Shown here piece after piece: positions 7,083-46,995 of a stretch of DNA of 61,465 nt; position 1 is the first letter of the stretch; every line of letters starts with the position of its first letter. The notes under the pieces were generated by a model. It saw only the letters and a list, made by a program, of their open reading frames with translations, was not told where the DNA came from and did no database searches. Made by a program: the position numbers and the translations under genes. This stretch comes from an uncultured Prevotellaceae bacterium. GTDB taxonomy: Bacteria > Bacteroidota > Bacteroidia > Bacteroidales > Bacteroidaceae. The stretch lies in assembly GCA_947166155.1 (NCBI GenBank), contig CAMVDC010000001.1:1-61465 (forward strand), given 5' to 3'.

Positions 7083-7141
7083 ACCCTCTGCCTTCTTCCC
7101 CCTCTGTACCCCCCTTCCCCCGTTGGGGGATTGAGGGGGAA
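7083..7141 (+). repeat. C-run/G-run nested hairpin module
   Basis: TTCCCCCTC (7096-7104) pairs with GAGGGGGAA (7133-7141). The inner pair is CCCCC-gtt-GGGGG (7117-7129). It lies directly after the SGNH hydrolase stop. Confidence 0.7.
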
Positions 7142-7216
7142 AAGAACAGTCTTGTAAACATAGTGGATAACACTTATTAAAAAACAACAATTTATAAACA
7201 ACATCTTAAACTTACT

Positions 7217-17262: not shown

Positions 17263-17271
17263 TACCAAGTA

Positions 17272-17320
17272 TCGTCCCTTTTACTCCCCTTTAACTTCCC
17301 TTTAACTTCCCTTTTAATCT
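17272..17320 (+). repeat. CCCTTTAACTTCC word repeat (complement of the 43640-43690 words)
   Basis: TCGTCCCTTTTACTCCCCTTTAACTTCCCTTTAACTTCCCTTTTAATCT lies immediately upstream of the prmC ATG. Confidence 0.75.
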
Positions 17321-29029: not shown

Positions 29030-29335
29030 GTCTTTACCTGAAAAACCATTCCCGAATAATAATCTGCACCGCCTTGGGGGGGATATCACCCCGAAAAGGC
29101 CGAAAAAGCGCGAACAAACACGGTTTCATCGGCAAAATCAGCACATAGAACGCATGTTTTTGTATGTGTAAATACATGCGGTTTATGCCGTGGGGGGGGG
29201 GATATAAATACATATACAACCAGTTTTCATAAATACGACGGTTTCATCGGTAAAATCAGCCCGATTTGGTAAAAAACGCTCGATGTATTAACACCCGGGG
29301 GGGATATCAGGGGGGATATTTTTCCCCCCCTTTCT
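29030..29335. repeat. degenerate ~118-bp tandem duplication with G-run+ATAT motifs
   Basis: GGGGGG(G)ATAT occurs at about 29075, 29192, 29297 and 29310. CGGTTTCATCGG(C/T)AAAATCAGC occurs at 29120 and 29239, with a related CGGTTTCATCGGGGAAAATC at 2047. Confidence 0.6.
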
Positions 29336-29385
29336 CACGGTGCTTATCAACCCATCTACAGATACCTGTGGAGGGGGCAAAAAAT

Positions 29386-29463
29386 GAGTGCGCACTCGCG
29401 GGGTCGCGAGTGCGCAGTCTCAGGCCCGCGAGTGCGCACTCTCGGCCTTGCGAGTGCGCACTC
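29386..29463 (-). repeat. inverted copy of the 22-bp GAGTGCGCACTC array
   Basis: Units start at 29386, 29408, 29430 and 29452, preceded by AAAAAAT (29379-29385). After reverse-complementing, the spacers align in order with the 14022 array (7/10, 9/10 and 8/10 matches). It lies downstream of the T9SS-CTD relic on the minus strand. Confidence 0.85.
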
Positions 29464-29592
29464 TCTGACGCCCGTTTCGGCGGTCACCTTAAATTCCATG
29501 CCTAAATGTTGTTTTCACTTCACCCACACCTTGGTTTCATCTTGGTGCATCTCGCCGCTCGGCAAATCTCTGGTGCAAGCCTGGATTTGCTC

Positions 29593-29811
29593 TCACTTCA
29601 CCCACACCTTCCTGCCGCCAACTATGTTCAGTCCTCGCTGCGGACGGAGTATGCGCTGACCCTGCAGGTTGTAGATGCGTGCTGGACCACGATAAGGTAC
29701 GGCAGATGTTTGTGTGATGCCGTCAGCGATGTGGTTGGTGTTTACTACCTCATGTTCCTTGCCCAAATGGTCGCGGACTATATAATTCTTGTCGGGGTCG
29801 AACCCCGGTAT
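29593..29811 (-). pseudogene. orphan relic of a T9SS C-terminal sorting domain (3' end of a decayed cargo gene)
   Basis: This minus-strand frame has no start codon and is bounded upstream by TAG. It reads ...ITQTSAVPYRGPARIYNLQGQRILRPQRGLNIVGGRKVWVK*. That aligns with the C-terminus of the 1751-aa protein (ISQVS...VYTISGQRVAAPQRGLNIVDGKKVLVK*). The terminal 18-mer encoding KVWVK* is duplicated 78 bp downstream (29515-29532). Confidence 0.55.
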
Positions 29812-30251
29812 CTACATGTCGGTCTCGTATAACATTTCACAATCATACGCCATCCCTGTTCTGTACAATTGCAATACTATACATGTGGAGTCGGGACTAT
29901 TTGTCGGTTCTTCGTGTACAATTGCATACAACGCGCTGCAAGATACATTGTGTGTTGATTTTTAGCGTTCCACCTTGTTTTACTTCAAAATGATTTTTTA
30001 TTCGTACCCTGCCTTCCGACTTTATTTGAAGGTTGGTACCAGTATTTACAATGACTTGGCCACTGGGTAAATCTGTTGTAGCATCACTCTATTAATACAG
30101 CAGTCGATACTGTTAACAATATCTATTATGTGCAAACATATTGGCATGAAAATGATATATAGATACCTTATTTTCCGCTCTCTGCCTTCCTCTTTCCATC
30201 CAAATAGCACGATTTTTGTGCTTACACCCCTCTCCTTTCATATTATTTAGC

Positions 30252-30259
30252 TATCTTTG
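30252..30259 (+). promoter_or_regulatory. Bacteroidota -7 box TATCTTTG
   Basis: Exact TAnnTTTG, 23 nt upstream of the dapB ATG. Confidence 0.6.
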
Positions 30260-30281
30260 CAACTCAAAACACGCATGAAAT

Positions 30282-32713: not shown

Positions 32714-33835
32714 ATGAAGATAGGGTTTGATGCTAAACGGCTGTTCTGCAACTTCACAGGACTGGGCAACCACAGCCGTACCACCATCGACATACTCGGA
32801 GCAGAATATCCCGAGACGCAGATGTATCTCTACACTCCGCGCCTCACGCTCAACCCTACTACACAACCCTACACCACACGTCGAAACTGCCACCTGCGCA
32901 CACCCCAGGGGATGGTGAAAGGCAGTTTGTGGCGCACGATGGCAGTGAGCCGCGAGGCACAGCGCGATGGCATAGACCTGTGGCACGGACTATCGAACGA
33001 ACTGCCCATGGGACTCAAGAGCCGACACATACCGTCGGTGGTGACCATACACGACGTGGCGTTCCACACGTTTCCCGACATGTATCACCGCCACGACCGC
33101 ATGATATACGACCTGAAATGGAGGTACGCATGCCGGAATGCCGACCAAATCATAGCCATAAGTCAGTGTACGGCTCGCGACATAGTGAAGTACTACGGAG
33201 TGGATGAGCGCAAATTGAATGTGGTGTACCAGCCCGTCAATTCAATCTACTACCAAGAGCCCACGACTCCCAACCGCAAACACCCTTACATGTTATATGT
33301 GGGGTCGGTCAACTCGAGGAAAAACCTCATGGGAGTGGTGCAGGCAATGGCCTCGATACCCGAGTCGGTACGCATACCCCTCGTGGTTGTAGGCGATGGC
33401 GGAGCATACAAGCGCCAGGTGATGGAATACGTGGAAAGTCATCGACTCACATCGATGGTGGAGTGGCGCACAGCAGCCAGCCACGACGAACTGCGAAGCC
33501 TCTACACCGATGCCACGCTGTTTGTCTATCCCTCGTTCTACGAAGGATTCGGACTGCCGGTGGTCGAAGCGTCGCTATGCAAATGCCCTGTGCTGACATC
33601 GAGCATAAGCAGCCTGCCCGAAGCCGCTGGACCTCATGCCGTGCTTGTCGACCCATACGACAACTCCGACATAGCTCGTGGCATGATGAAACTGCTGGAC
33701 AGCCATGAACTGCGCGAGCAGATAGGAGCCGACAGCCGCCGATATGCCATGCAGACATTCAGCCCGTCGGTGTTGGCTACCAACTTGATGAACGTATATC
33801 ACAAGACTATAAACAGAACGGATAACACTTTTTAA
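32714..33835 (+). CDS. glycosyltransferase family 4 (GT-B, GT1-Pfam type)
   Basis: 373 aa with the C-terminal EX7E-type motif FVYPSFYEGFGLPVVEA. Confidence 0.8.
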   Translation: MKIGFDAKRLFCNFTGLGNHSRTTIDILGAEYPETQMYLYTPRLTLNPTTQPYTTRRNCHLRTPQGMVKGSLWRTMAVSREAQRDGIDLWHGLSNELPMGLKSRHIPSVVTIHDVAFHTFPDMYHRHDRMIYDLKWRYACRNADQIIAISQCTARDIVKYYGVDERKLNVVYQPVNSIYYQEPTTPNRKHPYMLYVGSVNSRKNLMGVVQAMASIPESVRIPLVVVGDGGAYKRQVMEYVESHRLTSMVEWRTAASHDELRSLYTDATLFVYPSFYEGFGLPVVEASLCKCPVLTSSISSLPEAAGPHAVLVDPYDNSDIARGMMKLLDSHELREQIGADSRRYAMQTFSPSVLATNLMNVYHKTINRTDNTF

Positions 33836-33850
33836 ATACACTTATATATT

Positions 33851-35161
33851 ATGCCGAAAACCGTATATCTGGGAATGATAGGCGATATCATGCACCCAGG
33901 ACTTATAAACATAATCAACGAAGGAGCCAAGTATGGCGAGGTGATGATAGGATTGTTTACCGACCATGCTATAGCCAACCATCGCCGGCTGCCATACCTC
34001 AACTTCGAGCAGCGCAGGAACGTGATTGAAAACATACGTGGCGTGTCGCGTGTGGTGCCACAGGACGAGTGGAGCTATGTGGAAAACCTGAAGCGCTATC
34101 GTCCCGACTACATCATCCACGGCGACGACTGGCAGCAGGGTCCCGACCGCTACATACGCGACGAAGTGTTCAAGGTGATGGCGGCTCAGGGCGGCGAGGT
34201 GATAGAGATTCCATATACCAAGGGAATATCCGACTCGAGCCTTAAGGACGAGATGACATCCATCGGAGTGACTCCACAAACCCGACTCTCATCGCTCAGA
34301 CGCCTTATATCGGCCAAGCCTGTGGTGAGAATACTCGAATCGCACAGCGGACTGACCGGACTCATCATCGAACACACAACGGTGGATGTTGACGGACAGA
34401 CACGCGAGTTTGACGGCATGTGGGCATCGAGCCTCACCGACTCTACCAGCAAAGGTAAGCCAGACATCGAGGCGGTAGATCTCACAACACGTCTGCACGA
34501 CCTCAACGACACACTCGAAGTGACCACCAAGCCTGTCATCTTCGACGGCGACACTGGTGGCAAGGTGGAACATTTCGGTTTCACGGTGCGCACCCTGGAG
34601 CGACTCGGCATATCGGCCGTGATCATCGAAGACAAGGTGGGGCTGAAGCAAAACTCGCTCTTCGGCACCGATGCAGTGCAGACACAAGACACCATAGAGG
34701 GCTTCTCGGCCAAGATACGTGCAGGCAAGGATGCACAGATTACTCGCGACTTCATGATTATCGCGCGTTGTGAAAGCCTCATTGCAGGTAAACCGGTGGA
34801 CGATGCACTCGAACGCTGTCACGCATACGTTGAGGCAGGAGCCGACGGAATCATGATACACTCGAAGAATAAGAGCGGCGACGACATTCGCGAGTTCTGC
34901 ATCAGATTCCGACAGACCGATTCACACACACCGATAGTGGCTGTGCCTACGACCTACAACCAATTTACCGAGGAGCAACTGGCCGAATGGGGCATCAACA
35001 TCGTGATATATGCCAACCACATGCTGCGCTCGGCCTACCCTGCAATGGTGGAGTGTGCCAAGTCGATACTCACACACAGCCGCAGCCTCGAGGCATCCGA
35101 CAAATACTGTATGCCGATAAAAGAAATACTCAACCTCATACCAGGAACAATAAAGAAATGA
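33851..35161 (+). CDS. aepX: bifunctional cytidylyltransferase-like domain / phosphoenolpyruvate phosphomutase
   Basis: The N-terminal ~125 aa resemble the glycerol-3-phosphate cytidylyltransferase fold (YLGMIGDIMHPGLINII...IIHGDDW). The C-terminal ~300 aa carry PEP mutase motifs (ILESHSGLTGLI, MWASSLTDS, IIEDKVGLKQNSLFG). Its stop overlaps the next start (ATGA at 35158-35161). Confidence 0.85.
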   Translation: MPKTVYLGMIGDIMHPGLINIINEGAKYGEVMIGLFTDHAIANHRRLPYLNFEQRRNVIENIRGVSRVVPQDEWSYVENLKRYRPDYIIHGDDWQQGPDRYIRDEVFKVMAAQGGEVIEIPYTKGISDSSLKDEMTSIGVTPQTRLSSLRRLISAKPVVRILESHSGLTGLIIEHTTVDVDGQTREFDGMWASSLTDSTSKGKPDIEAVDLTTRLHDLNDTLEVTTKPVIFDGDTGGKVEHFGFTVRTLERLGISAVIIEDKVGLKQNSLFGTDAVQTQDTIEGFSAKIRAGKDAQITRDFMIIARCESLIAGKPVDDALERCHAYVEAGADGIMIHSKNKSGDDIREFCIRFRQTDSHTPIVAVPTTYNQFTEEQLAEWGINIVIYANHMLRSAYPAMVECAKSILTHSRSLEASDKYCMPIKEILNLIPGTIKK

Positions 35162-36285
35162 TAAGTCCACAATTCTTCATCGACGAACTGGGTCGGCACG
35201 GTATCGACTTCTATACCGGAGTGCCCGACTCCCTGCTCAAAAACATCTGTGCCTACATCACCGACACACTTCCCCACGACCACAACATCATAGCCGCCAA
35301 CGAAGGCGGAGCAATGGGCATTGCAGCCGGATACCATCTGGCTACAGGACGCATACCTGTGGTGTATATGCAGAACTCGGGCGAGGGAAACATCATAAAC
35401 CCCCTGGCATCGCTCACCGACAAGGAGGTGTACTGCATACCGGTGTTGTTGATAATCGGTTGGAGAGGCCGGCCTGGTGTTCACGACGAGCCCCAGCATG
35501 TGAAGCAAGGCAAGGTGACCACCGGACTGCTCAACACCATGGGGATAGACTACACGGTGCTGAGCAAAGACACCGACACTGCAGCCAAACAGATAAAGAC
35601 GGCCGTAGATTACATGCACCGCACCAACGAATGCTATGCCCTGGTGGTTGAGAAAGAGACATTCGAGGCCTATACATTGAGCAATACAAAAGCAACGATA
35701 CTCACCCTTGCTCGCGAAGAAGCGATAGAGAGTGTGGTGGAAACGCTCGAAGCCGATGCTGTGGTGGTATCTACTACCGGAATGATATCGAGAGAGTTGT
35801 TTGAGATACGTGAGCGCAGAGGACAAGACCACTCGCGCGACTTCCTGACAGTGGGCTCGATGGGGCATGCTTCGCAGATAGCACTGGGCATTGCATTACA
35901 ACAACCGCAGCGACCTGTGTATTGCTTCGACGGCGACGGTGCTGCAATAATGCACATGGGAGGCATGGCCATTGCTGCAAGCATGAAACCAAGCAACCTC
36001 ACACATATAGTATTCAACAACGGGGCTCACGACTCGGTAGGCGGACAGCCGACCGTGGGACTCGATATCGACCTGCCTGCCGTTGCAAAGGCTGTGGGCT
36101 ACAAGCATGTATATTCTGCCGACAACCTGACGGAGCTGACCGAAATACTCGGCAAGGCTAAAGGCGAGGAAGGACCGAAGCTGATACAGATATGTGTGAA
36201 GAAAGGCAACCGCAAAGACCTGGGTCGACCTACCACCACACCACAGCAGAACAAGGAGGCATTAATGAATTTCCTGAAAAGATGA
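35158..36285 (+). CDS. aepY: phosphonopyruvate decarboxylase (ThDP-dependent)
   Basis: MISPQFFIDELGRHGIDFYTGVPDSLLK N-terminus. ThDP-binding motif FDGDGAAIMHMGGMA...VFNNGAHDSVGGQPT. Sits directly after the PEP mutase, and its stop overlaps the next start (ATGA at 36282-36285). Confidence 0.85.
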   Translation: MISPQFFIDELGRHGIDFYTGVPDSLLKNICAYITDTLPHDHNIIAANEGGAMGIAAGYHLATGRIPVVYMQNSGEGNIINPLASLTDKEVYCIPVLLIIGWRGRPGVHDEPQHVKQGKVTTGLLNTMGIDYTVLSKDTDTAAKQIKTAVDYMHRTNECYALVVEKETFEAYTLSNTKATILTLAREEAIESVVETLEADAVVVSTTGMISRELFEIRERRGQDHSRDFLTVGSMGHASQIALGIALQQPQRPVYCFDGDGAAIMHMGGMAIAASMKPSNLTHIVFNNGAHDSVGGQPTVGLDIDLPAVAKAVGYKHVYSADNLTELTEILGKAKGEEGPKLIQICVKKGNRKDLGRPTTTPQQNKEALMNFLKR

Positions 36286-36995
36286 AGACAGCAGTAATCA
36301 TGGCCGCCGGCATGGGAACCCGCTTCGGCAAGATGACCGAAACCATGCCTAAGGGCTTTATTCCATACAAAGGAAAGGCGATGGTGGTGCGTAGCATAGA
36401 GACACTCATCGGTTGCGGCATCGAGCGCATCATTATCGGTACGGGCTACCAGCACGAGTGTTATGATGCGTTGAAGGAGCAATATCCGCAAATAGAGTGT
36501 GTGCTTTCGCCACGATATGCCGAGACCAACAGCATGTACACCCTATGGAACTGTCGCGAAGCAATAGGCAGCGACGACTTCCTGCTGCTTGAGTCCGACC
36601 TCGTGTTCGAGCCACGAGCCATCCGCGAACTCATCGATTGCGCTTACGAATCGGCTATGCTCATCACACCTGTCACCAAGTTTCAAGACCAATACTACGT
36701 GGAAATGAACTCGAAGTGCGAACTGGTAGCATGTTCGACCAACGAGCACGACATACATCCGCAAGGCGAATTGGTGGGCATACACAAGTTGAGCAACAAG
36801 TTCTACAAGACATGTATCGACGACTATGCAACCAAGGTAGAAGCACAGCCAAAGCTGGGATATGAATACCAGCTGCTCCATACATCCAGGCACTTGATGC
36901 CGATGAATGTGTTGAGGCTCGAAGGACTGCAATGGTATGAAATCGACGATATCGACGACCTCACATTTGCCGAGCAACATGTGAAGATAGAATGA
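36282..36995 (+). CDS. LicC-like nucleotidyltransferase (candidate phosphonate-specific cytidylyltransferase, PntC-like)
   Basis: ATG 36282 (the track ORF starts 30 codons earlier, inside aepY). MKTAVIMAAGMGTRFGKMTETMPKGFIP is the NTP-transferase G-loop. The C-terminal WYEIDDIDDLTFAE matches the LicC family ending. Confidence 0.75.
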   Translation: MKTAVIMAAGMGTRFGKMTETMPKGFIPYKGKAMVVRSIETLIGCGIERIIIGTGYQHECYDALKEQYPQIECVLSPRYAETNSMYTLWNCREAIGSDDFLLLESDLVFEPRAIRELIDCAYESAMLITPVTKFQDQYYVEMNSKCELVACSTNEHDIHPQGELVGIHKLSNKFYKTCIDDYATKVEAQPKLGYEYQLLHTSRHLMPMNVLRLEGLQWYEIDDIDDLTFAEQHVKIE

Positions 36996-37062
36996 ATAAT
37001 TAATAATTAATAATGAATAGCGGATGCTACGTTAATTAATAATGAATAGCGGATGCTTGAGC
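36991..37062 (+). repeat. two copies of the AATAATGAATAGCGGATGCT word (same family and orientation as 38216-38415)
   Basis: AATGAATAATTAATAATTAATAATGAATAGCGGATGCTACG is followed by TTAATTAATAATGAATAGCGGATGCTTGAGC, directly after the nucleotidyltransferase stop and 42 nt before aepZ. Confidence 0.85.
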
Positions 37063-37103
37063 AATAACAATAATATAAAATATATAATTAATAATATATA
37101 ATT

Positions 37104-38219
37104 ATGACTACACCCATAATTCCTACAATAAAGCGAAATGTGCTGCTCAACCCGGGTCCGGCCACAACGACCGACACTGTGAAGATGGCACAAGTGGTGC
37201 CCGACATCTGTCCGCGCGAAAAGGAATTTGCAGGCCTAATGAAAGGTTTGCGTTCCGACTTGCTGCGCGTGGCACACGCACCGGCCGACCAATTCACTGC
37301 AGTGCTTTTCTGCGGTTCGGGCACTATAAACATCGATATATGTATCAACTCGTTGCTGCCCGAAGGCAAGAAGATTCTGGTGGTGAACAACGGTGCTTAC
37401 AACAGCCGCGCCGTCGAGGTGTGCCAGATGTATCACTTGCCATATATCGACCTGAAGTCGAGTGTGTTTGAGCGGCCTAACCTTGCCGACATAGAACGTA
37501 CGCTCAACGAAAACCCCGATGTGGCTGTGGTGTATTGCTGCCACCACGAGACAGGCACAGGCGTTCTCAACCCCATTCGCGAGATTGGAGCCATGGCACA
37601 TCGGCACGGAGCCATTTTCATAAGCGACACCACATCGACCCTTGGCATGATACCGTTCGACATGGTTGAAGATAATGTCGATTTCTGCATGGCATCAGCA
37701 CAGAAAGGGCTCATGGCCATGTCGGGCTTGTCGTTCATCATTGGCAGGAAAGACATCATCGAAGCATCGAAACACTATCCGACACGCTCATACTACTGCA
37801 ACCTATATATGCAGTACGATTACTTCGAGCGTACCGGCGAGATGCATTTCACCCCACCCGTTCAGACCATCTATGCCACAATCCAGGCACTCAAAGAGTA
37901 TTTTGCCGAGGGCGAGGAAGCCAAGTTTGCCCGCCACCGCCGAGTGTATGAAGCCATACGCCGCGGAGTAGCACGCCTCGGCCTCGAGACAGTCATCGAC
38001 CCCGCCATCGAGTCAGGTCTTGTGGTGTCGGTGAAATACCCCGACGACCCACATTTCTCGTTCGAGCGTGTACACGACTACTGCTACGAACGCGGATTCA
38101 CCATCTATCCTGGCAAGATAAGCACCACCAACACCTTCCGCCTCTGTGCGCTCGGAACCATCGATGTGCAGGACATCGAAGACTTCTTCGTGGTATTTGA
38201 ACAGGCACTGAGGAGTTAA
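37104..38219 (+). CDS. aepZ: 2-aminoethylphosphonate:pyruvate aminotransferase (class V aminotransferase)
   Basis: LLNPGPATTTDTVKMAQVVPDICPREKEF N-terminus and the PLP-lysine region MASAQKGLMAMSGLSF. Located inside the phosphonate gene cluster. Confidence 0.8.
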   Translation: MTTPIIPTIKRNVLLNPGPATTTDTVKMAQVVPDICPREKEFAGLMKGLRSDLLRVAHAPADQFTAVLFCGSGTINIDICINSLLPEGKKILVVNNGAYNSRAVEVCQMYHLPYIDLKSSVFERPNLADIERTLNENPDVAVVYCCHHETGTGVLNPIREIGAMAHRHGAIFISDTTSTLGMIPFDMVEDNVDFCMASAQKGLMAMSGLSFIIGRKDIIEASKHYPTRSYYCNLYMQYDYFERTGEMHFTPPVQTIYATIQALKEYFAEGEEAKFARHRRVYEAIRRGVARLGLETVIDPAIESGLVVSVKYPDDPHFSFERVHDYCYERGFTIYPGKISTTNTFRLCALGTIDVQDIEDFFVVFEQALRS

Positions 38220-38415
38220 TGAATAATTAATAATAATGAATAGCGGATGCTCTTTGTTAATGAATAATTAATAATGAATAGCGGATGCTCTTTGTTAATG
38301 AATAATTAATAATGAATAGCGGATGCTTTTTGTTAATGAATAATTAATAATGAATAGCTGAAGCTCTTTGTTAATGAATAATTAATAGCGGATGCTTGGT
38401 GCACAGCGGATGCTA
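38216..38415 (+). repeat. tandem repeat, 38-bp unit TTAATGAATAATTAATAATGAATAGCGGATGCTCTTTG, ~5 copies
   Basis: Units at 38216 (41 bp), 38257, 38295 and 38333, with a degenerate copy at 38371. The array starts at the aepZ stop codon and ends 28 nt before the licD start. Confidence 0.92.
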
Positions 38416-38442
38416 CTTCAATCCTTCAATTATTCAATATAA

Positions 38443-39312
38443 ATGGAGAAAACAGTAATTCCAGCAGGTTTCCTCGACGAGGAGACGAGGAGCGGATATG
38501 TAGTCACAGCCGACATGAAGCGTGTTTGGTCGGTTCAGTTGGAGATGGTTGAGGCATTGCTCGACATCTGTCAGCGCCACAACCTGCGCATTTGGGCCGA
38601 TGCGGGTACATTGCTCGGAGTCATACGTCATGGTGGATATATTCCTTGGGACGACGATATCGACATGGTGATGCCTCGTGAGGACTACGACCGTTTGCAG
38701 CAGATAGCGCCGCATGAGTTGGCCGAGCCTCTCTTCTTCCAAACCATGCACACCGACCCTGGTTACACACACCGTCATGCACAGATTCGCAACTCCAACA
38801 CCGCGGCCATAGGTCTGAACCAGAAGTCATATACTTGTAATTGCGGCATATTCATCGACATCTTTCCACTTGAATACATGCCGGCCAGCCCCCGTCACTT
38901 CAAGCGCCACTACAATCGCATCACCCGCCTGAAGCAACATATACGTCTCATTCAGCGACTGCTCTTGCCGCTGCCCCGGGGCATATACATGTATTGCCGG
39001 AATCACACCACATGCCTGTCCGACGAACGTCTGTTCGACCAGTACGAGGACCTGTTGCGCAGTGTGAAGCGCAGCGACGCATCGACATGGGTCGATATCA
39101 CGTTCAACCACACATCGCCGCAACGCCCTATAGTGCTATACGAGCAGACGCTGTGGATGGATTTCGAGTACCTGAAGATGCCCGTGCCTGCCGGCTACGA
39201 TGCCATTCTCACCACCCATTTCGGCGATTATATGACTCCGGTCAAGTCGCCTTCATACCATGGTACATTGATTTACGATACCGAACATAGTTATAAGGAG
39301 ATACTGAAATAA
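38443..39312 (+). CDS. licD: LicD-family phosphotransferase (copy 1)
   Basis: LRIWADAGTLLGVIRHGGYIPWDDDIDMVMPREDYDRL and IDIFPLE are LicD signature blocks. Confidence 0.8.
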   Translation: MEKTVIPAGFLDEETRSGYVVTADMKRVWSVQLEMVEALLDICQRHNLRIWADAGTLLGVIRHGGYIPWDDDIDMVMPREDYDRLQQIAPHELAEPLFFQTMHTDPGYTHRHAQIRNSNTAAIGLNQKSYTCNCGIFIDIFPLEYMPASPRHFKRHYNRITRLKQHIRLIQRLLLPLPRGIYMYCRNHTTCLSDERLFDQYEDLLRSVKRSDASTWVDITFNHTSPQRPIVLYEQTLWMDFEYLKMPVPAGYDAILTTHFGDYMTPVKSPSYHGTLIYDTEHSYKEILK

Positions 39313-39331
39313 GGAGTTGACATTTTTCATT

Positions 39332-40159
39332 ATGGCAGACTACGACATACACATGCTGCATGAGCGCATACTGAGAATCATGGACGTCATTCACACGGTG
39401 TGCGAGGCTCATGGCCTTCGCTACTATCTGTGGGCAGGCACCATGTTGGGAGCCGTGCGCCATGGCGGCTTCATTCCTTGGGACGATGATGCCGACATAG
39501 CTATGCCTCGCCACGACTACGACTTGCTTGTGGCGAATGCCGAGCAGTGGTTTCCTGCTCCTTTCGAGCTCACATCCATTGAGAAGAGCACGCGCTTCAC
39601 CGGCACTTATGCAAAAATAGTAGATGCCAGTACCACCATCGTCGAGCGCTACGACTTCAATTCGGTGGGGGGCATATATGTCGACCTCTTTCCGCTCGAC
39701 GGCATGAGCAGCAATCCTGTTTGCGCCCGAAGCCATGTGACGCGTTATTCCGTCTTGCGCCAGATGGCATACTTCTGCAACCGCAATCCATATAAGCATG
39801 GTCGTGGACCCTCGTCGTGGCTGCCGCTGTTGATTCAGCGATGCTACAGCAACTACGACTTGCAGTCGAAGGCCATATCGCTGATGCGGCATTATGATTA
39901 CGACAGTCACGACATGATATGCGACTACGACTTTGGTTGTCATGGCATTATGCCAAAGCAGTATGCCGGACGCCCCACACCCATAGGCTTTGAGGGCCAC
40001 ACGTTTCTTGGGGTGGAGAATGCCCACGACTACCTCACCCATCTGTATGGCGACTACATGCAGCTGCCGCCCATTGAGCAGCGTCGTCAGCACAATTTCT
40101 ATTATCTCAACTACGACCTCCCCTTCCGTCAGTATGTCGACGAGCGTAAGTTTGTGTAA
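39332..40159 (+). CDS. licD: LicD-family phosphotransferase (copy 2)
   Basis: ATG 39332 (the track uses TTG 39317). LRYYLWAGTMLGAVRHGGFIPWDDDADIAMPRHDYDLL and VDLFPLD. Paralogue of the preceding gene. Its 3' end overlaps the convergent GT4 gene by 31 nt. Confidence 0.8.
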   Translation: MADYDIHMLHERILRIMDVIHTVCEAHGLRYYLWAGTMLGAVRHGGFIPWDDDADIAMPRHDYDLLVANAEQWFPAPFELTSIEKSTRFTGTYAKIVDASTTIVERYDFNSVGGIYVDLFPLDGMSSNPVCARSHVTRYSVLRQMAYFCNRNPYKHGRGPSSWLPLLIQRCYSNYDLQSKAISLMRHYDYDSHDMICDYDFGCHGIMPKQYAGRPTPIGFEGHTFLGVENAHDYLTHLYGDYMQLPPIEQRRQHNFYYLNYDLPFRQYVDERKFV

Positions 40160-41226
40160 ACCTCCACTATCTTTTTATAAAATATATCATAGTTGAGGTG
40201 CGACTGGAAGTAGTCGGAGGCTGCCTTGCCCATATTCCTGCGCATGGCGGCATCGTTTGTCATCATGCTCAGAGCATCGGCCAGCGCGTGGCTGTCGGCA
40301 GGTGGCACAAGCATGCCGTTGATGCCCGATGTGATATATTCCTGCTGTCCGCCGCCCGTGGTGGTTATCACGCATTTGCCCTGCGACATATATTCCATGC
40401 ATGCCAGCGACGACGATTCGGGCACTATGCTGGGCACCACTCCGAAGTCGGCTCCGCGTATATATGAAAACACATTGGGGCGGAACCCTATGAGGTGCAC
40501 GCGCCCTTCAAGTCGTTTGGTCTTTATTTTTTCCTTCAGAAATGCTGTATAGGTTTCATCGCCGCTTCCTATTATCACCAGGTGGAGTGGCATGTTGTGC
40601 TTCATTGTCAAGGCATTGATCAGTGTGATGAGCCCTTTCTCGGGTGCTATGCGACCGTGATACATGGCCACGACCATGTCGGCATCAATCGAGAACATGC
40701 TGTGCAGGTCTTCTGCCTGGGTGGATTCAGGCAGCGATATGCTGTTGAGTACGACGCATAGTTTCGCTTTGTCGATGGTGGGATTGGTGGCAAGGAATGC
40801 ATCCATCGCCACGTGCGACACAAACACCACACGGTCAACGTGTCGGTACAGCCATCGGTAGGGCAGCGATGTCTTGGCATGGCGCACCAGGTGGCGAGTC
40901 ACCACCACACTCATCGCCCCATTGTGGTTGAAGAGTCGGGCATAGCATGCGGTAAACGCATCCTTGAAGTTGTGGACATGTACCACACATGGCTCCTTGC
41001 CCACTATCGCTGCCAGCTTCTTGGCGCTCCTCACATCGGCCACACCCTTCAGTGGCAGTGTGTGGACCTCGATTCCTGCTTGCTTCATCCGAGTGGTGAT
41101 GGTGTCGACGGGGCGGCACACTACCACCACTCGATGCCCGTCGGCTTGCAATCGGCGGCAGAGGTCGAAGGCGTATTGCTCACCTCCGCCCCACACTTTG
41201 TTTGATATGATGTGGTAGATGGTCAT
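40129..41226 (-). CDS. glycosyltransferase family 4
   Basis: 365 aa. N-terminal YHIISNKVWGGGEQYAFDLCRRL and C-terminal GADFGVVPSIVPESSSLACMEYMSQGKCVI fit the GT-B fold pattern. Confidence 0.75.
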   Translation of the reverse strand: MTIYHIISNKVWGGGEQYAFDLCRRLQADGHRVVVVCRPVDTITTRMKQAGIEVHTLPLKGVADVRSAKKLAAIVGKEPCVVHVHNFKDAFTACYARLFNHNGAMSVVVTRHLVRHAKTSLPYRWLYRHVDRVVFVSHVAMDAFLATNPTIDKAKLCVVLNSISLPESTQAEDLHSMFSIDADMVVAMYHGRIAPEKGLITLINALTMKHNMPLHLVIIGSGDETYTAFLKEKIKTKRLEGRVHLIGFRPNVFSYIRGADFGVVPSIVPESSSLACMEYMSQGKCVITTTGGGQQEYITSGINGMLVPPADSHALADALSMMTNDAAMRRNMGKAASDYFQSHLNYDIFYKKIVEVYTNLRSSTY

Positions 41227-41236
41227 GGGTTGTTTT

Positions 41237-41400
41237 TAATTAATAATGAATAGCGGAGACAAATAATATTTACGATTTAGAAATGGAATAGAACGGACCC
41301 TCTCCCCGGCCCTCCCCCTTTATGGGGAGGGTGTCCATCCGGATGGCTTCCTCTCCCCATAAAGGGGGAGATGCCCAAAGGGCAGAGAGGGTCTGCCCTT
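41237..41400 (-). repeat. composite intergenic cassette (GT2-GT4 gap, minus orientation)
   Basis: Read on the minus strand, the order runs from the GT2 stop through G/C-run hairpins, CCATCCGGATGG (41335-41346), AAATCGTAAATATTATTTGTCTCCGCTATTCATTATTAATTAAAA, to the GT4 ATG. This is the same module order as upstream of dus. Confidence 0.85.
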
Positions 41401-41401
41401 T

Positions 41402-42160
41402 TCAACCTTCCGATGTCGCTTTTTTCTTCTCATACACCTTGGCCAGATAGTAGAACTTGCTCGATGCCGAGAACACGGCTTTGATGAATCCGGCGCGGCC
41501 CTCGAGGCAGGCACCCTCGATGAAGTAGTATTTTATGAATCGCCACAGGGGCGAGAGCATCATCTTCATGAGCGATGCGTCGGTAGTGCCGCGTTTCACG
41601 AGTTCGTTGTCGGTATATTCGTTCATCTTCTTCAGCTGTCCGCCCACGGTGAACCCCATGTGCAATAGTGCGTACTTCGGGTCCTTGGGCATGTGGCCCA
41701 CGCTGCCGCTTATCTTGGGCACTGAGTGTATGGTAGGAGGCCATGTGGCCTTGGTGTGGTTCATGAATCGCAGTTGTGGGTCGGGATACGAAGCCTTGAT
41801 CCATCGCCCCAGAAACATGTTTTTGCGGTTCACGTAGAGTGCATCGTGGTGGTCGGCCTGCTCGATGTAGTCGTACAGATAGTCCCTCAGCTCGGGTGTC
41901 ACACGTTCGTCGGCATCCACCACCAGCACCCACTCGTTGCTGGCCGAGTGGATAGCAAAGTCGCGTGCCGGTTCGCAAATGTTGTACGAGCCCTTGGGGA
42001 ATGTCACCACGTGGCAACCATATCGTCGAGCCACCTCGACCGTGGTGTCGGTACTCTCCATGTCGCACACCACCACCTCGTCGAAGTCCTTGACCGACTC
42101 CAGTGTCCCGGCCAGCGTCTCGGCCGCGTTGTATGTGTTGATAACTATCGAAATCTTCAT
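41402..42160 (-). CDS. glycosyltransferase family 2
   Basis: ATG 42160 gives MKISIVINTYNAAETL, then DEVVVCDMESTD and VLVVDADERV (DXD), which fit a GT-A fold. The track ORF starts 8 codons upstream. Confidence 0.8.
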   Translation of the reverse strand: MKISIVINTYNAAETLAGTLESVKDFDEVVVCDMESTDTTVEVARRYGCHVVTFPKGSYNICEPARDFAIHSASNEWVLVVDADERVTPELRDYLYDYIEQADHHDALYVNRKNMFLGRWIKASYPDPQLRFMNHTKATWPPTIHSVPKISGSVGHMPKDPKYALLHMGFTVGGQLKKMNEYTDNELVKRGTTDASLMKMMLSPLWRFIKYYFIEGACLEGRAGFIKAVFSASSKFYYLAKVYEKKKATSEG

Positions 42161-42328
42161 CGTCATGCATCTTTTCGATGGCAAAGATAGTAATTATTTC
42201 ACATTCCGACGCTCACAATCACCGATTATTTTGCCAAAGACCTCATATTCCTCGTGCCCATCAGCGGCTTTATCAGCCAAAGCTGATATTTCGGTCGCAT
42301 GCGCCTGGCATCCGACAAAACCCTGAGC

Positions 42329-42634
42329 CTACGCACTAAAAACCTCGCGACTACGCATGAAAAAACTCGCGAGTGCGGAGGAATTCTTTAATTTGCGACG
42401 CAAATTATTAAATTTACGTCGCAGTTTTATTAATTTTCCACCGAAAATTATTAAATTTACGTCGCAAATTAAAGAATTACTCCGCACTCGCAGGCAAATT
42501 AGTCCGCACTCGCAGCAAAATTACTGCGCACTCGCAATAAAACTTAACCGTTCCTTCAATAAAACTTCACCGTTCTTCCAGCAAGACTCTACCTTTCTTT
42601 CAGCAAAACTCACCGTTCTCGCTGCAAAAAGAGG
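42329..42634 (+). repeat. ~14-unit array of 22-bp phased repeats around a 98-bp core bounded by 25-bp inverted repeats (element A)
   Basis: Each unit has an A/T-rich half and a G/C-rich half (CGCACTCG, ACGTCGCA or ACCGTTC types). Core IR arms are AATTCTTTAATTTGCGACGCAAATT (42381-42405) and its complement with one mismatch. The 113-bp segment 42380-42492 is 92% identical to 54321-54433. Confidence 0.9.
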
Positions 42635-42799
42635 GTGGCGTGGTGCATGGTGATATGCGCGCGTGTGCGCGTGTAATATTAATAAGGTGTGGTGCATGTA
42701 GTGGCAGGCAGTTGGTCGTTTCGCGTGGTGGATGATGGCGTTGAGGCCGATTTATGCATATTTCGTGTGATAAGGTCGGGTGGTTACATGGTTTTTTCG

Positions 42800-42807
42800 T
42801 ATCTTTG
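42800..42807 (+). promoter_or_regulatory. Bacteroidota -7 box TATCTTTG
   Basis: Exact TAnnTTTG, 15 nt upstream of the LPS-kinase ATG. Confidence 0.55.
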
Positions 42808-42821
42808 CATCGCAATAACTG

Positions 42822-43592
42822 ATGACGATTATGACGAGATATGAACTGAGTGGCGAATATGACTCCAACCGCGATTTGCTCGATTTCATCGGCCGAATCG
42901 ACACAGAGTTCGACACCGAAGGCCGGATTTTGTTTGCCGGCAGGCGCAACACGCTGGGGGAGTTTTGCATAGCCGAGGGGCACCCAGTGCTCGGACATGT
43001 GGTGGTGAAGCGTTTCAACGTCCACGGCCCGCTGGCAAGCATTGTGTATGGAGTGTTTCGACGTTCGAAGGCTCAGCGTGCTTTCCGCAGCGCCTTGCGC
43101 CTGATGGAGGCGGGATGCAGCACTCCGCAGCCGATAGGGTGGATTGAGGTGAAGAGCGGCATGCTGCTCAGGCGTTGCTACTATATATGCACATACACCG
43201 AGGCACAGTCGGTGCGCACCGAGTTGGAGGTGGAACGTAACATGGAGCTTGCCACGAGTTTTGCCCACTTCATCGCACGCATGCATTCGCACGGCATCGT
43301 TCACCACGACCTCAACCTGTCGAACGTGCTTTACGAACTCGATGCCGACGGGCGATATGTCGTTTCGGTAATCGACATCAACCGCACTACCTACACTCCG
43401 CCATCGCGCCTGTCGCTGCGCAGCTGCATCGACGACTTCGTGAGATGGACCGACGACCCCGAACTCTTTGAACACGTAATGCGCCGATATGCCGAAGCGC
43501 GCAACCTCGACCCCGAGGCCTTTCTCGCGAAGGCATGGGGCATGAAACGCTGGCACGATGTGTGGTGGAAAGTGAAGAAATGGCGACTATAA
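42822..43592 (+). CDS. lipopolysaccharide kinase family protein (Kdo/WaaP/InaA type)
   Basis: 256 aa. VVKRFN (Lys), catalytic loop HGIVHHDLNLSNVLY, then VIDINR. A TATCTTTG box lies 15 nt upstream. Confidence 0.7.
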   Translation: MTIMTRYELSGEYDSNRDLLDFIGRIDTEFDTEGRILFAGRRNTLGEFCIAEGHPVLGHVVVKRFNVHGPLASIVYGVFRRSKAQRAFRSALRLMEAGCSTPQPIGWIEVKSGMLLRRCYYICTYTEAQSVRTELEVERNMELATSFAHFIARMHSHGIVHHDLNLSNVLYELDADGRYVVSVIDINRTTYTPPSRLSLRSCIDDFVRWTDDPELFEHVMRRYAEARNLDPEAFLAKAWGMKRWHDVWWKVKKWRL

Positions 43593-43800
43593 AGCCCCCC
43601 TAACACCTCCAAAGCCCCCTCCCTGAATAATTGAAAGGAAGTTAAAGGGAAGTAAAAGGGAGTTAAAAGGGAGTTAAAGGGACGATACCTACTCCGAGGC
43701 AACATCCGTCCTTTTAACTTCATAGCGAAGCGATAACTTCTTTTCCATTCCTTTCCATTCCTAAATAGTAAATAGTAAATCTGTAAATAGTAAATAACAA
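43593..43800 (+). repeat. composite intergenic cassette variant with AAGGGAAGTTAA words
   Basis: CCCCCCTAACACCTCCAAAGCCCCCTCCC, then GGAAGTTAAAGGGAAGTAAAAGGGAGTTAAAAGGGAGTTAAAGGGA (the complement of 17272-17320), then TTCCATTCCTTTCCATTCC, then TAAATAGTAAATAGTAAATCTGTAAATAGTAAATAAC. Confidence 0.8.
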
Positions 43801-43801
43801 A

Positions 43802-44836
43802 GTGGATTGTTACGTAAAGATAGAATCGCCCAACACGGCCAAGCGCCATGTGGATAGGCTCATGGAGCTTATGGGCGCACGCGACCTTTCGGTCGACATA
43901 CGCGGCGGCCGCAGCAAGACGAGCAAGCATGTGGCCACATTCATGCGCAAACTGATGAGCATGGCCAACCTAATGCTACAGCTGAAACGTGGCGACACAC
44001 TGCTCATTCAGTATCCGTTCAAGAAATTCTATGTGACGCAATGCCGCATAGCACACTGGCGTGGAGCCAAGACAGTGACGCTGATACACGACCTCGGGAC
44101 TTTCCGCCGCGGTAAACTGACGGCCGAGAAGGAGATACGACGCCTGTCGCACACCGACGTGATCATCGCCCACAACCCCAGCATGAGGGCATGGCTCGAG
44201 GGGCATGGATGCAAGGTGCCAATCGTGGACCTCGACATCTTCGACTATCTTGCCCCTACACGTCCGGGCGACAAGGCACAAAACTACTCGCAACACCACA
44301 TCCCCACCGTGGTGTTTGCAGGAGGCATAAGTCGCCGGAAGACCAACTTCATATATGATGTCGACGAGAAAATCGACGGCATACACCTCGACATCTATGG
44401 CTCGGGACTTGAGCCCGATGCCGACAAGCATTGGCGCAACACCACATTCCATGGCTCGATCGACTCCGACGAGTTTATCGCCACCATCGATGCCGACTGG
44501 GGCCTGGTGTGGGACGGCGATACGGTCGACGGCTGTCAGGGCACATGGGGCAGCTATCTCAGGGTCAACAACCCCCACAAAGCATCGTTCTACCTGCGTG
44601 CCGAGCTGCCAGTCATAGTGTGGAAAGAGTCGGCCATGGCCCCGTTCATCATAAATCAAGGTGTGGGAATAGCAGTCGATTCGCTCAGCCAACTGCCACA
44701 AGTGCTCACACAAATCACCCCGCAGCAGTATGCCGCCTACAGGCAGGCAGCCGAGGAAATGGCCGGCCGGCTTGGCAGCGGCCACTATTTCTACAAAGCA
44801 TATCGCAAGGCACTCGGCATGATAGGCAGGGAGTGA
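43802..44836 (+). CDS. putative sugar transferase (WbbI/galactofuranosyltransferase-like)
   Basis: GTG start. The C-terminal block GSYLRVNNPHKASFYLRAELPVIVWKESAMAPFI resembles WbbI-like beta-1,6-galactofuranosyltransferases. The assignment is from memory and the start is uncertain. Confidence 0.45.
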   Translation: MDCYVKIESPNTAKRHVDRLMELMGARDLSVDIRGGRSKTSKHVATFMRKLMSMANLMLQLKRGDTLLIQYPFKKFYVTQCRIAHWRGAKTVTLIHDLGTFRRGKLTAEKEIRRLSHTDVIIAHNPSMRAWLEGHGCKVPIVDLDIFDYLAPTRPGDKAQNYSQHHIPTVVFAGGISRRKTNFIYDVDEKIDGIHLDIYGSGLEPDADKHWRNTTFHGSIDSDEFIATIDADWGLVWDGDTVDGCQGTWGSYLRVNNPHKASFYLRAELPVIVWKESAMAPFIINQGVGIAVDSLSQLPQVLTQITPQQYAAYRQAAEEMAGRLGSGHYFYKAYRKALGMIGRE

Positions 44837-45247: not shown

Positions 45248-45311
45248 TGGGTAGGTGAGCTTGGAGCATGAGACCTCCGAGTCCTCCGATACTTCTGAGC
45301 ACTCCAAGCAC

Positions 45312-45348
45312 CCGCTATTCATTATTCATTATTAATTATTCATTAAAA
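45312..45348 (+). repeat. CCGCTATTCATTATTCATTATTAATTATTCATTAAAA module upstream of groEL
   Basis: A stretch of 36-37 bp is identical to 27995-28030, which lies directly upstream of the dus start. Confidence 0.9.
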
Positions 45349-45366
45349 ATAAACACATCAACTATC

Positions 45367-46995
45367 ATGTCAAAGGAACTTAAATTCAATATAGACGCCC
45401 GCGAGCAAGTGAAGCTGGGCGTAGACACACTGGCAAATGCCGTGAAGGTGACACTCGGTCCTAAAGGCCGCAACGTGATTATCGAAAAGAAGTTTGGCGC
45501 ACCACAAATCACTAAGGACGGTGTGACCGTAGCTAAGGAAATAGAACTGGAAGACGCATTCCAGAACACAGGAGCACAGCTCGTGAAGAGCGTGGCTTCG
45601 AAGACCGGCGACGATGCCGGCGACGGAACAACTACCGCTACAGTATTGGCACAAGCCATCTGCACTGCCGGATTGAAGAACGTGGCTGCTGGTGCTAACC
45701 CAATGGACCTGAAGCGCGGTATCGACAAGGCCGTGGCAAAGGTGGTGGAACACATCAAGAGCCAGAGCGAACAGGTGGGCGACAACTACGAGAAGATAGA
45801 ACAAGTGGCCACCGTGAGTGCCAACAACGACAGCGAGATAGGTAAACTCATTGCCGATGCAATGAAGAAAGTGTCGAAAGACGGCGTAATCACCATCGAG
45901 GAAGCCAAGAGCCGCGACACAACCATAGGAGTGGTTGAAGGTATGCAGTTCGACCGCGGTTACCTCTCACCATACTTCGTGACCGACACCGAGAAGATGG
46001 AATGCCAGATGGAAAACCCACTCATCCTCATCTACGACAAGAAAATATCCAACCTCAAGGAGTTCCTCCCAATACTCGAACCAGCCGTACAGACAGGACG
46101 TCCACTGCTCGTCATTGCAGAAGACATCGACAGCGAGGCACTCACCACATTGGTAGTGAACCGCCTGCGCAGCCAACTCAAGATATGCGCCGTGAAGGCA
46201 CCAGGATTCGGCGACCGCAGGAAGGCAATGCTCGAAGACATCGCAATCCTCACCGGTGGTGTGGTTATCAGCGAAGAGAAGGGCCTGAAACTCGAACAAG
46301 CTACTGTCGACATGCTGGGTAGCGCCGAGAAGGTGACCATCTCGAAGGACAACACAACCATCGTGGGCGGTAAGGGCGACAAGCAACTCATCCAAGACCG
46401 CGTGAACCAAATCAAGGCCGAAATCAAGGCAACCACCAGCGACTACGACAAAGAGAAGCTACAGGAACGCCTTGCCAAGCTGAGCGGCGGTGTGGCAGTG
46501 CTCTACGTGGGTGCTGCAAGCGAAGTCGAGATGAAGGAAAAGAAAGACCGTGTCGACGATGCACTCTGCGCAACACGTGCTGCAATCGAGGAAGGAACCG
46601 TAGTAGGTGGTGGAGTAGCACTCATCCGCTCTATCGAAGCCCTCGACGGACTCAAAGGCGAGAATGCCGACGAGCAGACAGGTATCCAGATCATACGTCG
46701 TGCAATCGAAGAACCACTCCGCCAGATTGTGGAGAACGCAGGCCTTGAAGGCAGCGTAGTGGTAGAGAAGGTGCGCAACGGAAAGGGCGACTTTGGCTAC
46801 AACGCACGCAAGGATGCATACGAGAACCTGCGCGAAAGCGGAATCCTCGACCCTGCCAAGGTGACACGTGTGGCACTTGAAAACGCTGCCAGCATTGCAG
46901 GCATGCTGCTCACTACCGAGTGTGTCATCTGCGACAAGAAGGAGGATAAGCCCGAAATGCCAATGGGCGGAGGCGGCATGGGTGGAATGATGTAA
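45367..46995 (+). CDS. groEL: chaperonin GroEL
   Basis: ATG 45367 gives [37 protein letters not shown], then [10 protein letters not shown], with the C-terminal GGMGGMM tail. The track ORF starts 33 codons upstream, inside a repeat. Confidence 0.98.

Follow-up and report, generated by a model that had tools for sequence, protein, structure and literature searches.

Phosphonyl tailoring with 2-aminoethylphosphonate (AEP) through LicD-like transferases is already known, both from the clusters described by Rice et al. (2019) and from the PSB capsule of Bacteroides fragilis. About 60% of phosphoenolpyruvate (PEP) mutases (Ppm) were found to be fused to nucleotidyltransferases in that work, clusters may hold a fused and a separate nucleotidyltransferase together, and PntC prefers AEP and has LicD-like phosphotransferases encoded nearby (PMC6697681). 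For lipooligosaccharide (LOS), the experimentally defined cluster of Bacteroides thetaiotaomicron combines a GT9 enzyme, a lipopolysaccharide (LPS) kinase, 13 glycosyltransferases, four tailoring enzymes and a GtrA-like protein (PMC5850320), and the LOS core of B. fragilis carries phosphoethanolamine (bioRxiv 10.1101/2024.04.13.589361). Here we describe a locus in 61,465 nucleotides of DNA from an uncultured Prevotellaceae bacterium (contig CAMVDC010000001.1; this whole 61-kb stretch is hereafter called the window), in which a gene set for the synthesis and activation of AEP, aepX-aepY-pntC-aepZ, lies between a GT4 glycosyltransferase gene (GT4a) and two licD genes. Since its features are already found in Rice et al., the module itself is of a known kind. 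What is new is its placement in an LOS-core-like rather than a capsule locus, and a slot with interchangeable phosphonate and phosphoester cassettes, an apparently recent mosaic exchange and a covarying LicD residue.

We propose that aepX-aepY-pntC-aepZ would be one of at least two interchangeable head-group cassettes in a fixed GT4-LicD slot, that AEP would stand there as the carbon-phosphorus (C-P) analogue of a phospho-amino-alcohol decoration, and that cassettes would be swapped between lineages through recombination at their edges. The gene content suggests that the locus probably decorates a non-capsular oligosaccharide, most likely the LOS core, with AEP.

The AEP cassette

Pfam and NCBIfam profiles were run on every large open reading frame (ORF) of the window, alongside an ORF listing. 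A preliminary description, made from the letters of the DNA, had named the genes of the locus and their order, and each was recovered in its place (Table 1). The profile searches gave the same list, with Ppm, Ppd and AepZ above the NCBIfam equivalog cut-offs: AepX reaches 407.5 bits against TIGR02320 (cut-off 319.55), AepY 513.5 bits against TIGR03297 (312.5) and AepZ 458.6 bits against the PhnW-AepZ model TIGR03301 (360.8). The EDKxxxKxNS motif that had been read in the Ppm fusion is present as EDKVGLKQNS at residue 260. The N-terminal domain of the same protein (33851-34250, residues 1-133) matches the cytidylyltransferase (CyTase) domain of Fom1 (PDB 5X3D) at 155 bits, with HPGL in place of the HPGH of Fom1, and the HPGL variant is kept in the related loci L007, L016 and L041 and in homologues at 73% identity. 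PntC matches the AEP-specific PntC domain of Treponema denticola Tde1415 (6PD1) over its full length (residues 2-233) at 141.8 bits, whereas its match to pneumococcal LicC (1JYK) is weaker, at 58.4 bits.

The genes are packed as in an operon. Ppm starts 15 nt behind GT4a, and stop and start codons overlap both between Ppm and Ppd and between Ppd and PntC; the start of AepY overlaps the Ppm stop codon as ATGA, and the gene is called at 375 amino acids (aa) in six metagenome contigs, L001-L006. These contigs, which may come from oral samples, keep the whole arrangement of the window at 97-99% identity. Housekeeping genes flank the locus, dapB-lepB upstream and groES-groEL-mutS downstream; the best matches of GroEL (92% identity), dapB (80%) and lepB (78%) place the DNA in GTDB Bacteroidaceae/Prevotellaceae.

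From these matches we assign Ppm, Ppd, AepZ and PntC to their enzyme activities. Ppm would convert PEP to phosphonopyruvate, which Ppd would decarboxylate to phosphonoacetaldehyde, thereby pulling the Ppm reaction forward; AepZ would transaminate phosphonoacetaldehyde to AEP, and PntC would join AEP with cytidine triphosphate (CTP) to give cytidine monophosphate (CMP)-AEP. Everything beyond CMP-AEP formation is what we infer from the genes. LicD2, and probably LicD1, would move the aminoethylphosphonyl group from CMP-AEP onto sugar hydroxyls as a phosphonate ester. GT4a, GT4b, GT2 and the WbbI-like transferase would build the acceptor oligosaccharide, and the Kdo/WaaP-family kinase would phosphorylate a core sugar.

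A phosphonate rather than a phosphocholine head group, as the preliminary description had proposed, is well supported, because the nucleotidyltransferase is of the PntC type, Ppm, Ppd, PntC and AepZ form an operon-like block, and licA and licB are absent. A lic1 phosphocholine locus was considered and rejected, as neither the licA choline kinase nor the licB choline permease is encoded in the window.

The GT4-LicD slot and its cassettes

A scan of species-representative genomes with GT4a gave 80 loci (best identity 62%, so the window's own species is not represented in that set), which were then analysed by tblastn and ORF classification; LicD homologues later led to three more (L109, L112 and L114). 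Orthologues of GT4a at 45-62% identity occur in 37 loci, and the closest of them are followed by the AEP cassette, by a cassette of a HisC-like and a LicC-like gene, or by LicD directly. In Type A loci (the window, L007, L016/L110, L041, L109 and L112) the order is GT4a, Ppm, Ppd, PntC, AepZ and LicD, with gaps of 4-24 nt between GT4a and Ppm outside the window and AepZ-LicD junctions that range from a 4-nt overlap to a gap of about 40 nt. L114, whose contig starts at AepZ, shows AepZ followed by LicD and is counted here. Type B loci (L010, L014, L020, L021, L025 and L026) have a HisC/CobD-like pyridoxal phosphate (PLP) enzyme and a LicC-like nucleotidyltransferase between GT4a and LicD. The same block of HisC-like, LicC-like and LicD genes is found in L111 and L115, though not directly behind a GT4a orthologue, and L113 has the Type B cassette genes and LicD in a different arrangement, again not directly behind a GT4a orthologue. 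In Type C, GT4a is followed by LicD within a few bases (nine loci). One of these, L017, has the full gene set of the window without the cassette: GT4a, LicD2, GT2 (66% identity), a LicD1-like gene, the kinase (42%), a WbbI-like gene (62%) and a GT4b-like gene.

The comparison of L010 (Type B) with L041 (Type A) is the most direct view of the slot. The two share 85% identity in GT4a, 76% in LicD, 67% in the kinase, 65% in the second LicD and 79% in the second GT4. As the rest of the locus is shared, the two cassettes behave as alleles of one slot. The Type B nucleotidyltransferase scores 82 bits against LicC and 65 bits against PntC, the reverse of the window's enzyme, and the closest matches of the PLP enzyme are histidinol-phosphate aminotransferases and enzymes resembling threonine-phosphate decarboxylase. 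The product of this cassette is probably a cytidine diphosphate (CDP)-linked phospho-amino-alcohol such as CDP-ethanolamine. In Bacteroidales LOS-like loci this cassette appears as a PLP enzyme of about 345 aa and a LicC-like protein of about 243 aa (with a weak DUF6564 match) encoded upstream of LicD; phosphoethanolamine, aminopropanol phosphate and serinol phosphate are candidate head groups. In L111 a deacetylase gene accompanies the HisC-like, LicC-like and LicD genes, and BT3373-BT3376 of B. thetaiotaomicron might be a similar set. Literature searches returned no direct precedent for a HisC-like/LicC/LicD pathway.

Phylogenetic uncoupling of the LicD and glycosyltransferase genes from aepXYZ had been named beforehand as a result that would tell against a phosphonate-modified glycan. 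It is found in part. The scaffold occurs without aepXYZ in most relatives, and the two are thus separable; where the cassette does stand beside the scaffold, however, it occupies this one slot every time, and a single residue of LicD changes together with the cassette type.

The history of the slot is recorded in the comparison of the window with L007, from a Prevotellaceae metagenome-assembled genome. DNA identity is about 60-70% across GT4a and about 96% from the start of Ppm; it stays high up to the AepZ stop, except in the PntC-AepZ spacer, and is lost beyond that stop; taken as a whole, the flanking genes are about 60-65% identical. Within the cassette 8-17% of conserved codons differ and third-position identity is 83-92%, as against 44-55% and 43-48% in the flanking GT4a and LicD2. 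This pattern is not explicable by purifying selection on the proteins. The GC content of L007 is 46.5% in the flanks and 51.9% in the cassette, that of the window's cassette 51.6%, and the L007 block of GT4, cassette, LicD and GT2 lies between an Mrr-type restriction endonuclease gene (L007 812-1849) and a phage-type integrase gene (9242-10237). L016 and L041 follow the same trend, with cassette proteins 87-95% identical and flanks 60-83%. Most likely the mosaic reflects a recent transfer of the cassette. Alternatively, a close relative may have had its flanking alleles replaced. Under either reading of the sequences, recombination breakpoints are placed at the edges of the cassette.

The two LicD paralogues of the window are 33% identical, score 135 and 138 bits against PF04991 (gathering score 22.6) and contain the Asp-rich motif GxxRHxGxIPWDDDxD as IPWDDDIDM and IPWDDDADI, with residues that are invariant in 27 aligned LicDs. 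LicD2 has orthologues at 43-64% identity. LicD1 groups with the second LicDs of L020 (61% identity), L047, L017 and L025, all loci without the AEP cassette; by this grouping it is a second-clade LicD inserted, in the window's species, between the cassette and LicD2. The preliminary description had allowed for either two acceptor sites or two head-group variants. The relatives of LicD1 sit in Type B and Type C loci, with one cassette or none, and two LicDs of different clades accompany a single cassette in L010, L016, L020, L025, L041 and L115. Because several relatives thus have two LicDs and one cassette, two acceptor positions are the better reading and two head-group variants the less likely one; the two LicDs of the window would serve two such positions.

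In the 27-LicD alignment, the motif DHD[D/F]G of the slot-adjacent LicD has Phe throughout the Type A loci and Asp throughout those of Types B and C; LicD2 itself reads DYDFG. Overall, Phe is found in 7 of 7 loci with the AEP cassette and Asp in 9 of 9 with the alternative cassette, and at least two independent switches between them must be assumed, since in the tree the LicD of L041 falls within the Type B sequences. A database search added 120 LicD homologues, of which 88 have Asp at this site, 23 Phe and 7 Ser. Among this independent set, the Phe-type P0156, P0161, P0198 and P0180 all stand behind AEP genes, and the Asp-type P0124, P0153 and P0227 belong to HisC-like/LicC-like loci, where in L111 and L115 they lie directly behind the cassette. 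The correlation suggests that this site may be a determinant of donor specificity, such that a LicD receiving CMP-AEP would have Phe instead of Asp. In the comparison with a solved LicD-family structure, only the N-terminal Asp motif could be aligned with FKRP. Flexibility in the donor has precedent in Mf1, which uses both CDP-choline and CDP-ethanolamine (PMC11982090).

The acceptor glycan

The preliminary description had favored an LPS or LOS core, or another non-capsular glycan, over a Wzy-dependent capsule, and had listed several genes as missing. The list holds in scans of the whole window: no Wzx, Wzy, Wzz/Wza/Wzc, initiating phosphoglycosyl transferase, UpxY/UpxZ or choline kinase and permease (licA/licB) was found by Pfam or NCBIfam in any large ORF, and the four glycosyltransferases of the locus have no Wzx, Wzy or export genes in the window. 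A capsule locus was rejected on these grounds. That the AEP module as such does not decide the matter is clear from the capsule loci L093-L095, in which capsule genes of the kind missing from the window surround the homologous module. A Ppm 86% identical to the window's lies there among genes for Wza, Wzx, a chain-length protein and a TagF-like protein, and LicD directly follows the module here, too. As it also occurs in a capsule locus, the module is not tied to one glycan type.

The scaffold is more informative. In the loci of relatives, DUF4254 is encoded directly upstream of the GT4a orthologue in about 20 cases, and a GT9 heptosyltransferase-like gene lies between the two in L031, L032, L033, L036 and L043 and nearby in L110. 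LpxL-like lipid A acyltransferases (Lip_A_acyltrans) are encoded inside or beside L014, L111, L113 and other loci, and LptE near L107 and L108. Homologues of the kinase adjoin GT4a in many loci, and in Alloprevotella tannerae the locus is reduced to the kinase and GT4a, side by side. The window's kinase itself scores 38.4 bits against PF06293 (gathering score 21.3) and has an HHDLNLSN catalytic loop and an IDIN motif. These neighbors resemble in composition the B. thetaiotaomicron LOS cluster, which is why an LOS-core acceptor is favored; the preference for a non-capsular acceptor thus stands, the link of GT4a to LPS genes being one of association. On balance we lean towards the LOS core as the acceptor, with somewhat better than even confidence.

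Several observations weigh against this picture. Neither GT9 nor DUF4254 was found in the window by tblastn, and LpxL, WaaA and WaaL genes are likewise absent from its 61 kb; the acceptor is read from gene neighborhoods in other genomes. The kinase scores 43.5 bits against the KdkA model NF002475, under its cut-off of 142. About 16 loci and few independent events underlie the Phe/Asp rule, which is a correlation. P0139 and P0141, in which the motif is shortened to YDF-KH and no cassette adjoins the gene, are exceptions to it, and proteins of the LicD1 clade have Phe or Tyr at this site whatever the cassette type. The product of the HisC-like/LicC-like cassette is a candidate CDP-amino-alcohol. 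The HPGL variant in the AepX domain, beside a separate PntC, raises the question of what that domain does. The chemistry, finally, is predicted from gene sequence, and we know of no LicD that has been shown to use CMP-AEP.

A different destination for the same head group has to be weighed. The AEP pathway could operate as described above and the acceptor be the species-specific outer part of the protein O-glycan of Bacteroidota, or else a free glycolipid or a short exopolysaccharide built on undecaprenyl phosphate, which would fit a window without GT9, DUF4254 and LpxL, as well as the lack of LPS specificity in WbbI/Gtf3-type, GT2 and GT4 enzymes. A 495-aa multi-pass membrane protein encoded 6.4 kb upstream, a possible MOP flippase, could serve such a pathway, and Bacteroidota O-glycans do, if rarely, carry phosphate and amino modifications (PMC12871550). 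However, an O-glycosylation (LFG) locus opens with metG and then wzx according to PMC12871550. Neither lies near the locus described here, which is flanked by lepB and groES, and neither came up in the scans, so that assignment to an LFG locus was rejected. The window also lacks an initiating phosphoglycosyl transferase, and GT4a orthologues are repeatedly found beside GT9, the LPS kinase, Lip_A_acyltrans and LptE. We therefore regard a non-LOS acceptor of this kind as rather unlikely, though not negligible.

The remaining alternatives concern what LicD does. It might move AEP to a glycosyl-diacylglycerol or ceramide-type lipid, as Mf1 does with phosphocholine on glucosyl-diacylglycerol, and the sole NCBIfam match of both LicDs is indeed the Mf1 diacylglycerol cholinephosphotransferase model; at 63-67 bits, however, these matches fall far under the cut-off of 225. 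Phosphonoglycans or phosphonolipids are the supposed products of about half of all ppm clusters (PMC8942020), but this locus holds four or five glycosyltransferases and a sugar kinase and lacks a CDP-alcohol phosphatidyltransferase, an acyltransferase and a serine palmitoyltransferase, so a phosphonolipid appears very improbable. Nor do we give much credence to LicDs that use another CDP-activated group made elsewhere, with CMP-AEP consumed by an unlinked enzyme and the adjacency of cassette and LicD owed to a recombination hotspot. The GT4a-LicD pair without any cassette in at least nine relatives means that donors can be encoded elsewhere, and LicD1-clade genes occur in loci without AEP genes. 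Yet in all seven independent AEP loci AepZ is the gene directly upstream of the slot-adjacent LicD, apart from the window, which has LicD1 in between; cassette type and DHD[D/F]G residue change together; and capsule loci, too, have LicD directly after the AEP module. Decoration of the LOS core with AEP is thus the reading that we carry forward.

To our knowledge, surface decoration with phosphonates is thought to be common and has been chemically characterised in a handful of cases only, and no transferase has been demonstrated to use CMP-AEP. Our searches of the literature found no open-access paper that describes AEP on the core of LPS or LOS, and no direct precedent for LicD in Bacteroides LOS or for DUF4254. 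The scheme predicts a C-P group in the LOS, not the capsule, of abundant human oral and gut bacteria. If it is correct, the zwitterionic C-P group would be resistant to phosphodiesterases and could change how antimicrobial peptides, complement, pentraxins and phages recognise such LOS, and species- and strain-level exchange of cassettes would be a new axis of antigenic variation in Prevotellaceae LOS. Loci that are near-isogenic except for the cassette and one LicD residue offer a natural comparison for the choice between phosphonate and phosphate donors. We put forward only tentatively the fuller proposal that the LOS core locus of oral and gut Prevotellaceae has a modular head-group slot in which recombination swaps cassettes and a single Asp-to-Phe change in the downstream LicD retunes the donor from CDP-linked to CMP-phosphonate, which would be the first C-P (AEP) decoration of an LOS or LPS core.

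Other features of the window and relation to known systems

Table 1. Genes of the locus and further features of the window
Feature	Position	Strand	Profile match or remark
GT4a, GT4 glycosyltransferase, left slot border	32714-33835	+	Pfam Glycos_transf_1, Glyco_transf_4
AepX/Ppm, CTP_transf_like/PEP_mutase fusion	33851-35161	+	TIGR02320, PF01467
AepY/Ppd, thiamine diphosphate (ThDP)-dependent phosphonopyruvate decarboxylase	35158-36285	+	TIGR03297
PntC, CTP:AEP cytidylyltransferase, LicC fold	36282-36995	+	NTP_transf_3; PDB 6PD1
AepZ, class-V 2-aminoethylphosphonate aminotransferase	37104-38219	+	TIGR03301
LicD1, LicD-family phosphotransferase, second clade	38443-39312	+	PF04991, E = 5e-39
LicD2, slot-adjacent LicD, right slot border	39332-40159	+	PF04991, E = 8e-40
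GT4b glycosyltransferase, convergent with LicD2 (31-nt overlap)	40129-41226	-	Pfam
GT2 glycosyltransferase, convergent with LicD2	41402-42166	-	Glycos_transf_2
Kdo/WaaP-family (protein-kinase-like) sugar kinase	42822-43592	+	PF06293
WbbI/Gtf3-like GT-B glycosyltransferase	43802-44836	+	NF007326, E = 8e-66, under its cut-off
AT-rich repeat, two copies directly after the PntC stop	36990-37060		0 or 2 copies among L001-L006
AT-rich repeat, tandem array of five between AepZ and LicD1	38213-38414		3 or 5 copies among L001-L006
AT-rich repeat at the GT4b start	41223-41261
AT-rich repeat, inverted, just upstream of the groEL start	45307-45360
Near-perfect hairpin between GT2 and the kinase	42369-42540		50-nt arms
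Purine-rich tandem repeats between the kinase and the WbbI-like gene	43631-43682		period about 11 nt
Sequence like these repeats, intergenic	17267-17317
groEL ORF, 5'-extended	45268-46995		true start near 45367
495-aa multi-pass membrane protein beside ruvB	24776-26263	-	sub-threshold MatE/MFS matches, no NCBIfam match
1751-aa protein	7217-12472		tyrosine-phosphatase-family and FIVAR domains

The genes beyond the slot recur in relatives. For the WbbI-like protein, Gtf3_N and Gtf3_C are recorded in an identical protein of L002, and homologues are found in L017, L025, L047 and L115. GT2 is called as a 254-aa gene in L002, and L109 and L112, both with the AEP cassette, have the same convergent pair of GT4 and GT2 behind LicD.

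An AT-rich repeat of about 38 nt (TTGTTAATGAATAATTAATAATGAATAGCGGATGCTCT) has nine copies in the window, all within 8.4 kb, which abut the ends or starts of ORFs and at which short-read contigs break. It was not found in the loci of other species, L007 included, and a metagenome scan placed it on eight other short contigs, usually beside a start codon. As it shows no hairpin and no consensus promoter, readings as an integron-attC-like or promoter element were rejected. The inverted copy is covered by the 5' extension of the groEL ORF, in which the GroEL model starts at residue 34-35.

Bacteroidetes -7 boxes of the form TATCTTTG lie just upstream of dapB (30252), the GT2 start (42182-42189), the kinase start (42800-42807) and mutS. 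The TAnnTTTG box is weakly enriched (33 matches vs 23 expected), and only boxes close to starts were used, as hints. The scan found none between the dapB box and LicD2; dapB, LicD2 and the plus-strand genes between them may therefore share a transcript. Scans for sigma-70 promoters and for intrinsic terminators came out near shuffle expectation and were not used, and Rfam and tRNA scans found nothing in the locus. The divergent intergenic region between GT2 and the kinase is 637 nt long, and its hairpin (RNA fold -66.5 kcal/mol, z = -8.6), after which come three 22-nt tandem repeats, could be an insert resembling a miniature inverted-repeat transposable element or a regulatory element. The purine-rich repeats downstream of the kinase (TTAAAGGGAAG-like) have counterparts of 85-91% identity over 34-48 nt at the second intergenic site of Table 1 and at 10249-10373 of L007.

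Further away, the 495-aa membrane protein may be a MOP-type flippase; housekeeping genes separate it from the locus. Positions 1-12472 have a lower GC content (40-43%) and encode BspA-type leucine-rich-repeat proteins and the 1751-aa protein, products that appear surface-protein-like and unrelated to the AEP locus. Just upstream of the locus, L001 has a 481-aa gene without a Pfam match between dus and dapB (L001 4499-5944) where the window has only a spacer of about 1.25 kb (29030-30281), and hence a strain-level indel.

Among known systems, Fom1 of fosfomycin biosynthesis is also a CyTase-PEP mutase fusion and is matched by the N-terminal domain of AepX; it differs in that the second His of its HxGH motif is Leu in the window, where neither a gene for a reductase forming hydroxyethylphosphonate (HEP) nor a Fom3-like gene accompanies the fusion. 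The lic1 loci (licABCD) of Haemophilus and Streptococcus share with the locus a cytidylyltransferase of the LicC fold and one or more LicDs, and decorate LOS or teichoic acid; in Streptococcus pneumoniae two LicD paralogues serve two sites. The window differs in having neither LicA nor LicB, in a head group that would be made de novo from PEP and in a nucleotidyltransferase of the PntC type. We know of no report of phosphonate decoration for any Bacteroides LOS. The B. thetaiotaomicron LOS cluster BT3362-BT3380 (PMC5850320), to which we liken the locus by composition, also holds many glycosyltransferases, an LPS-kinase-family gene (with a putative counterpart in the window) and tailoring enzymes and has no Wzx or Wzy; GT9 is its first gene (BT3362), as in some loci with an orthologue of the window's GT4a, whereas the window itself has no GT9.

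The PSB-type capsule loci of B. fragilis with aepXYZ (GCF 743, PMC8942020) likewise have Ppd, AepZ, PntC and LicD in one operon, and Ppm in both is a CTP_transf_like-Ppm fusion, which in the window is 436 aa long and 86-87% identical to a very large Bacteroidales family. They differ in holding Wza, a chain-length protein, Wzx and a TagF-like protein, all absent from the window, and in the gene order Ppm-Ppd-AepZ-PntC, as against Ppm-Ppd-PntC-AepZ here. The Pnt clusters of T. denticola, A. rimae and O. uli (Rice et al. 2019, PMC6697681) share with the window the PF01467-fused Ppm, Ppd, the class-V transaminase, a PntC of the same PF12804 type that matches the solved T. denticola enzyme, and a LicD directly downstream, and the proposed logic is the same, CMP-AEP being made and then moved to a cell-surface glycan. 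In contrast to Tde1415, in which PntC is fused to the transaminase, PntC stands alone in the window. A further difference is that the module of the window would be movable, inserted as it is into the conserved slot between GT4 and LicD in an LOS-like locus of Bacteroidales, and that the window's relatives hold a phosphoester-type cassette there as the apparent allelic alternative.

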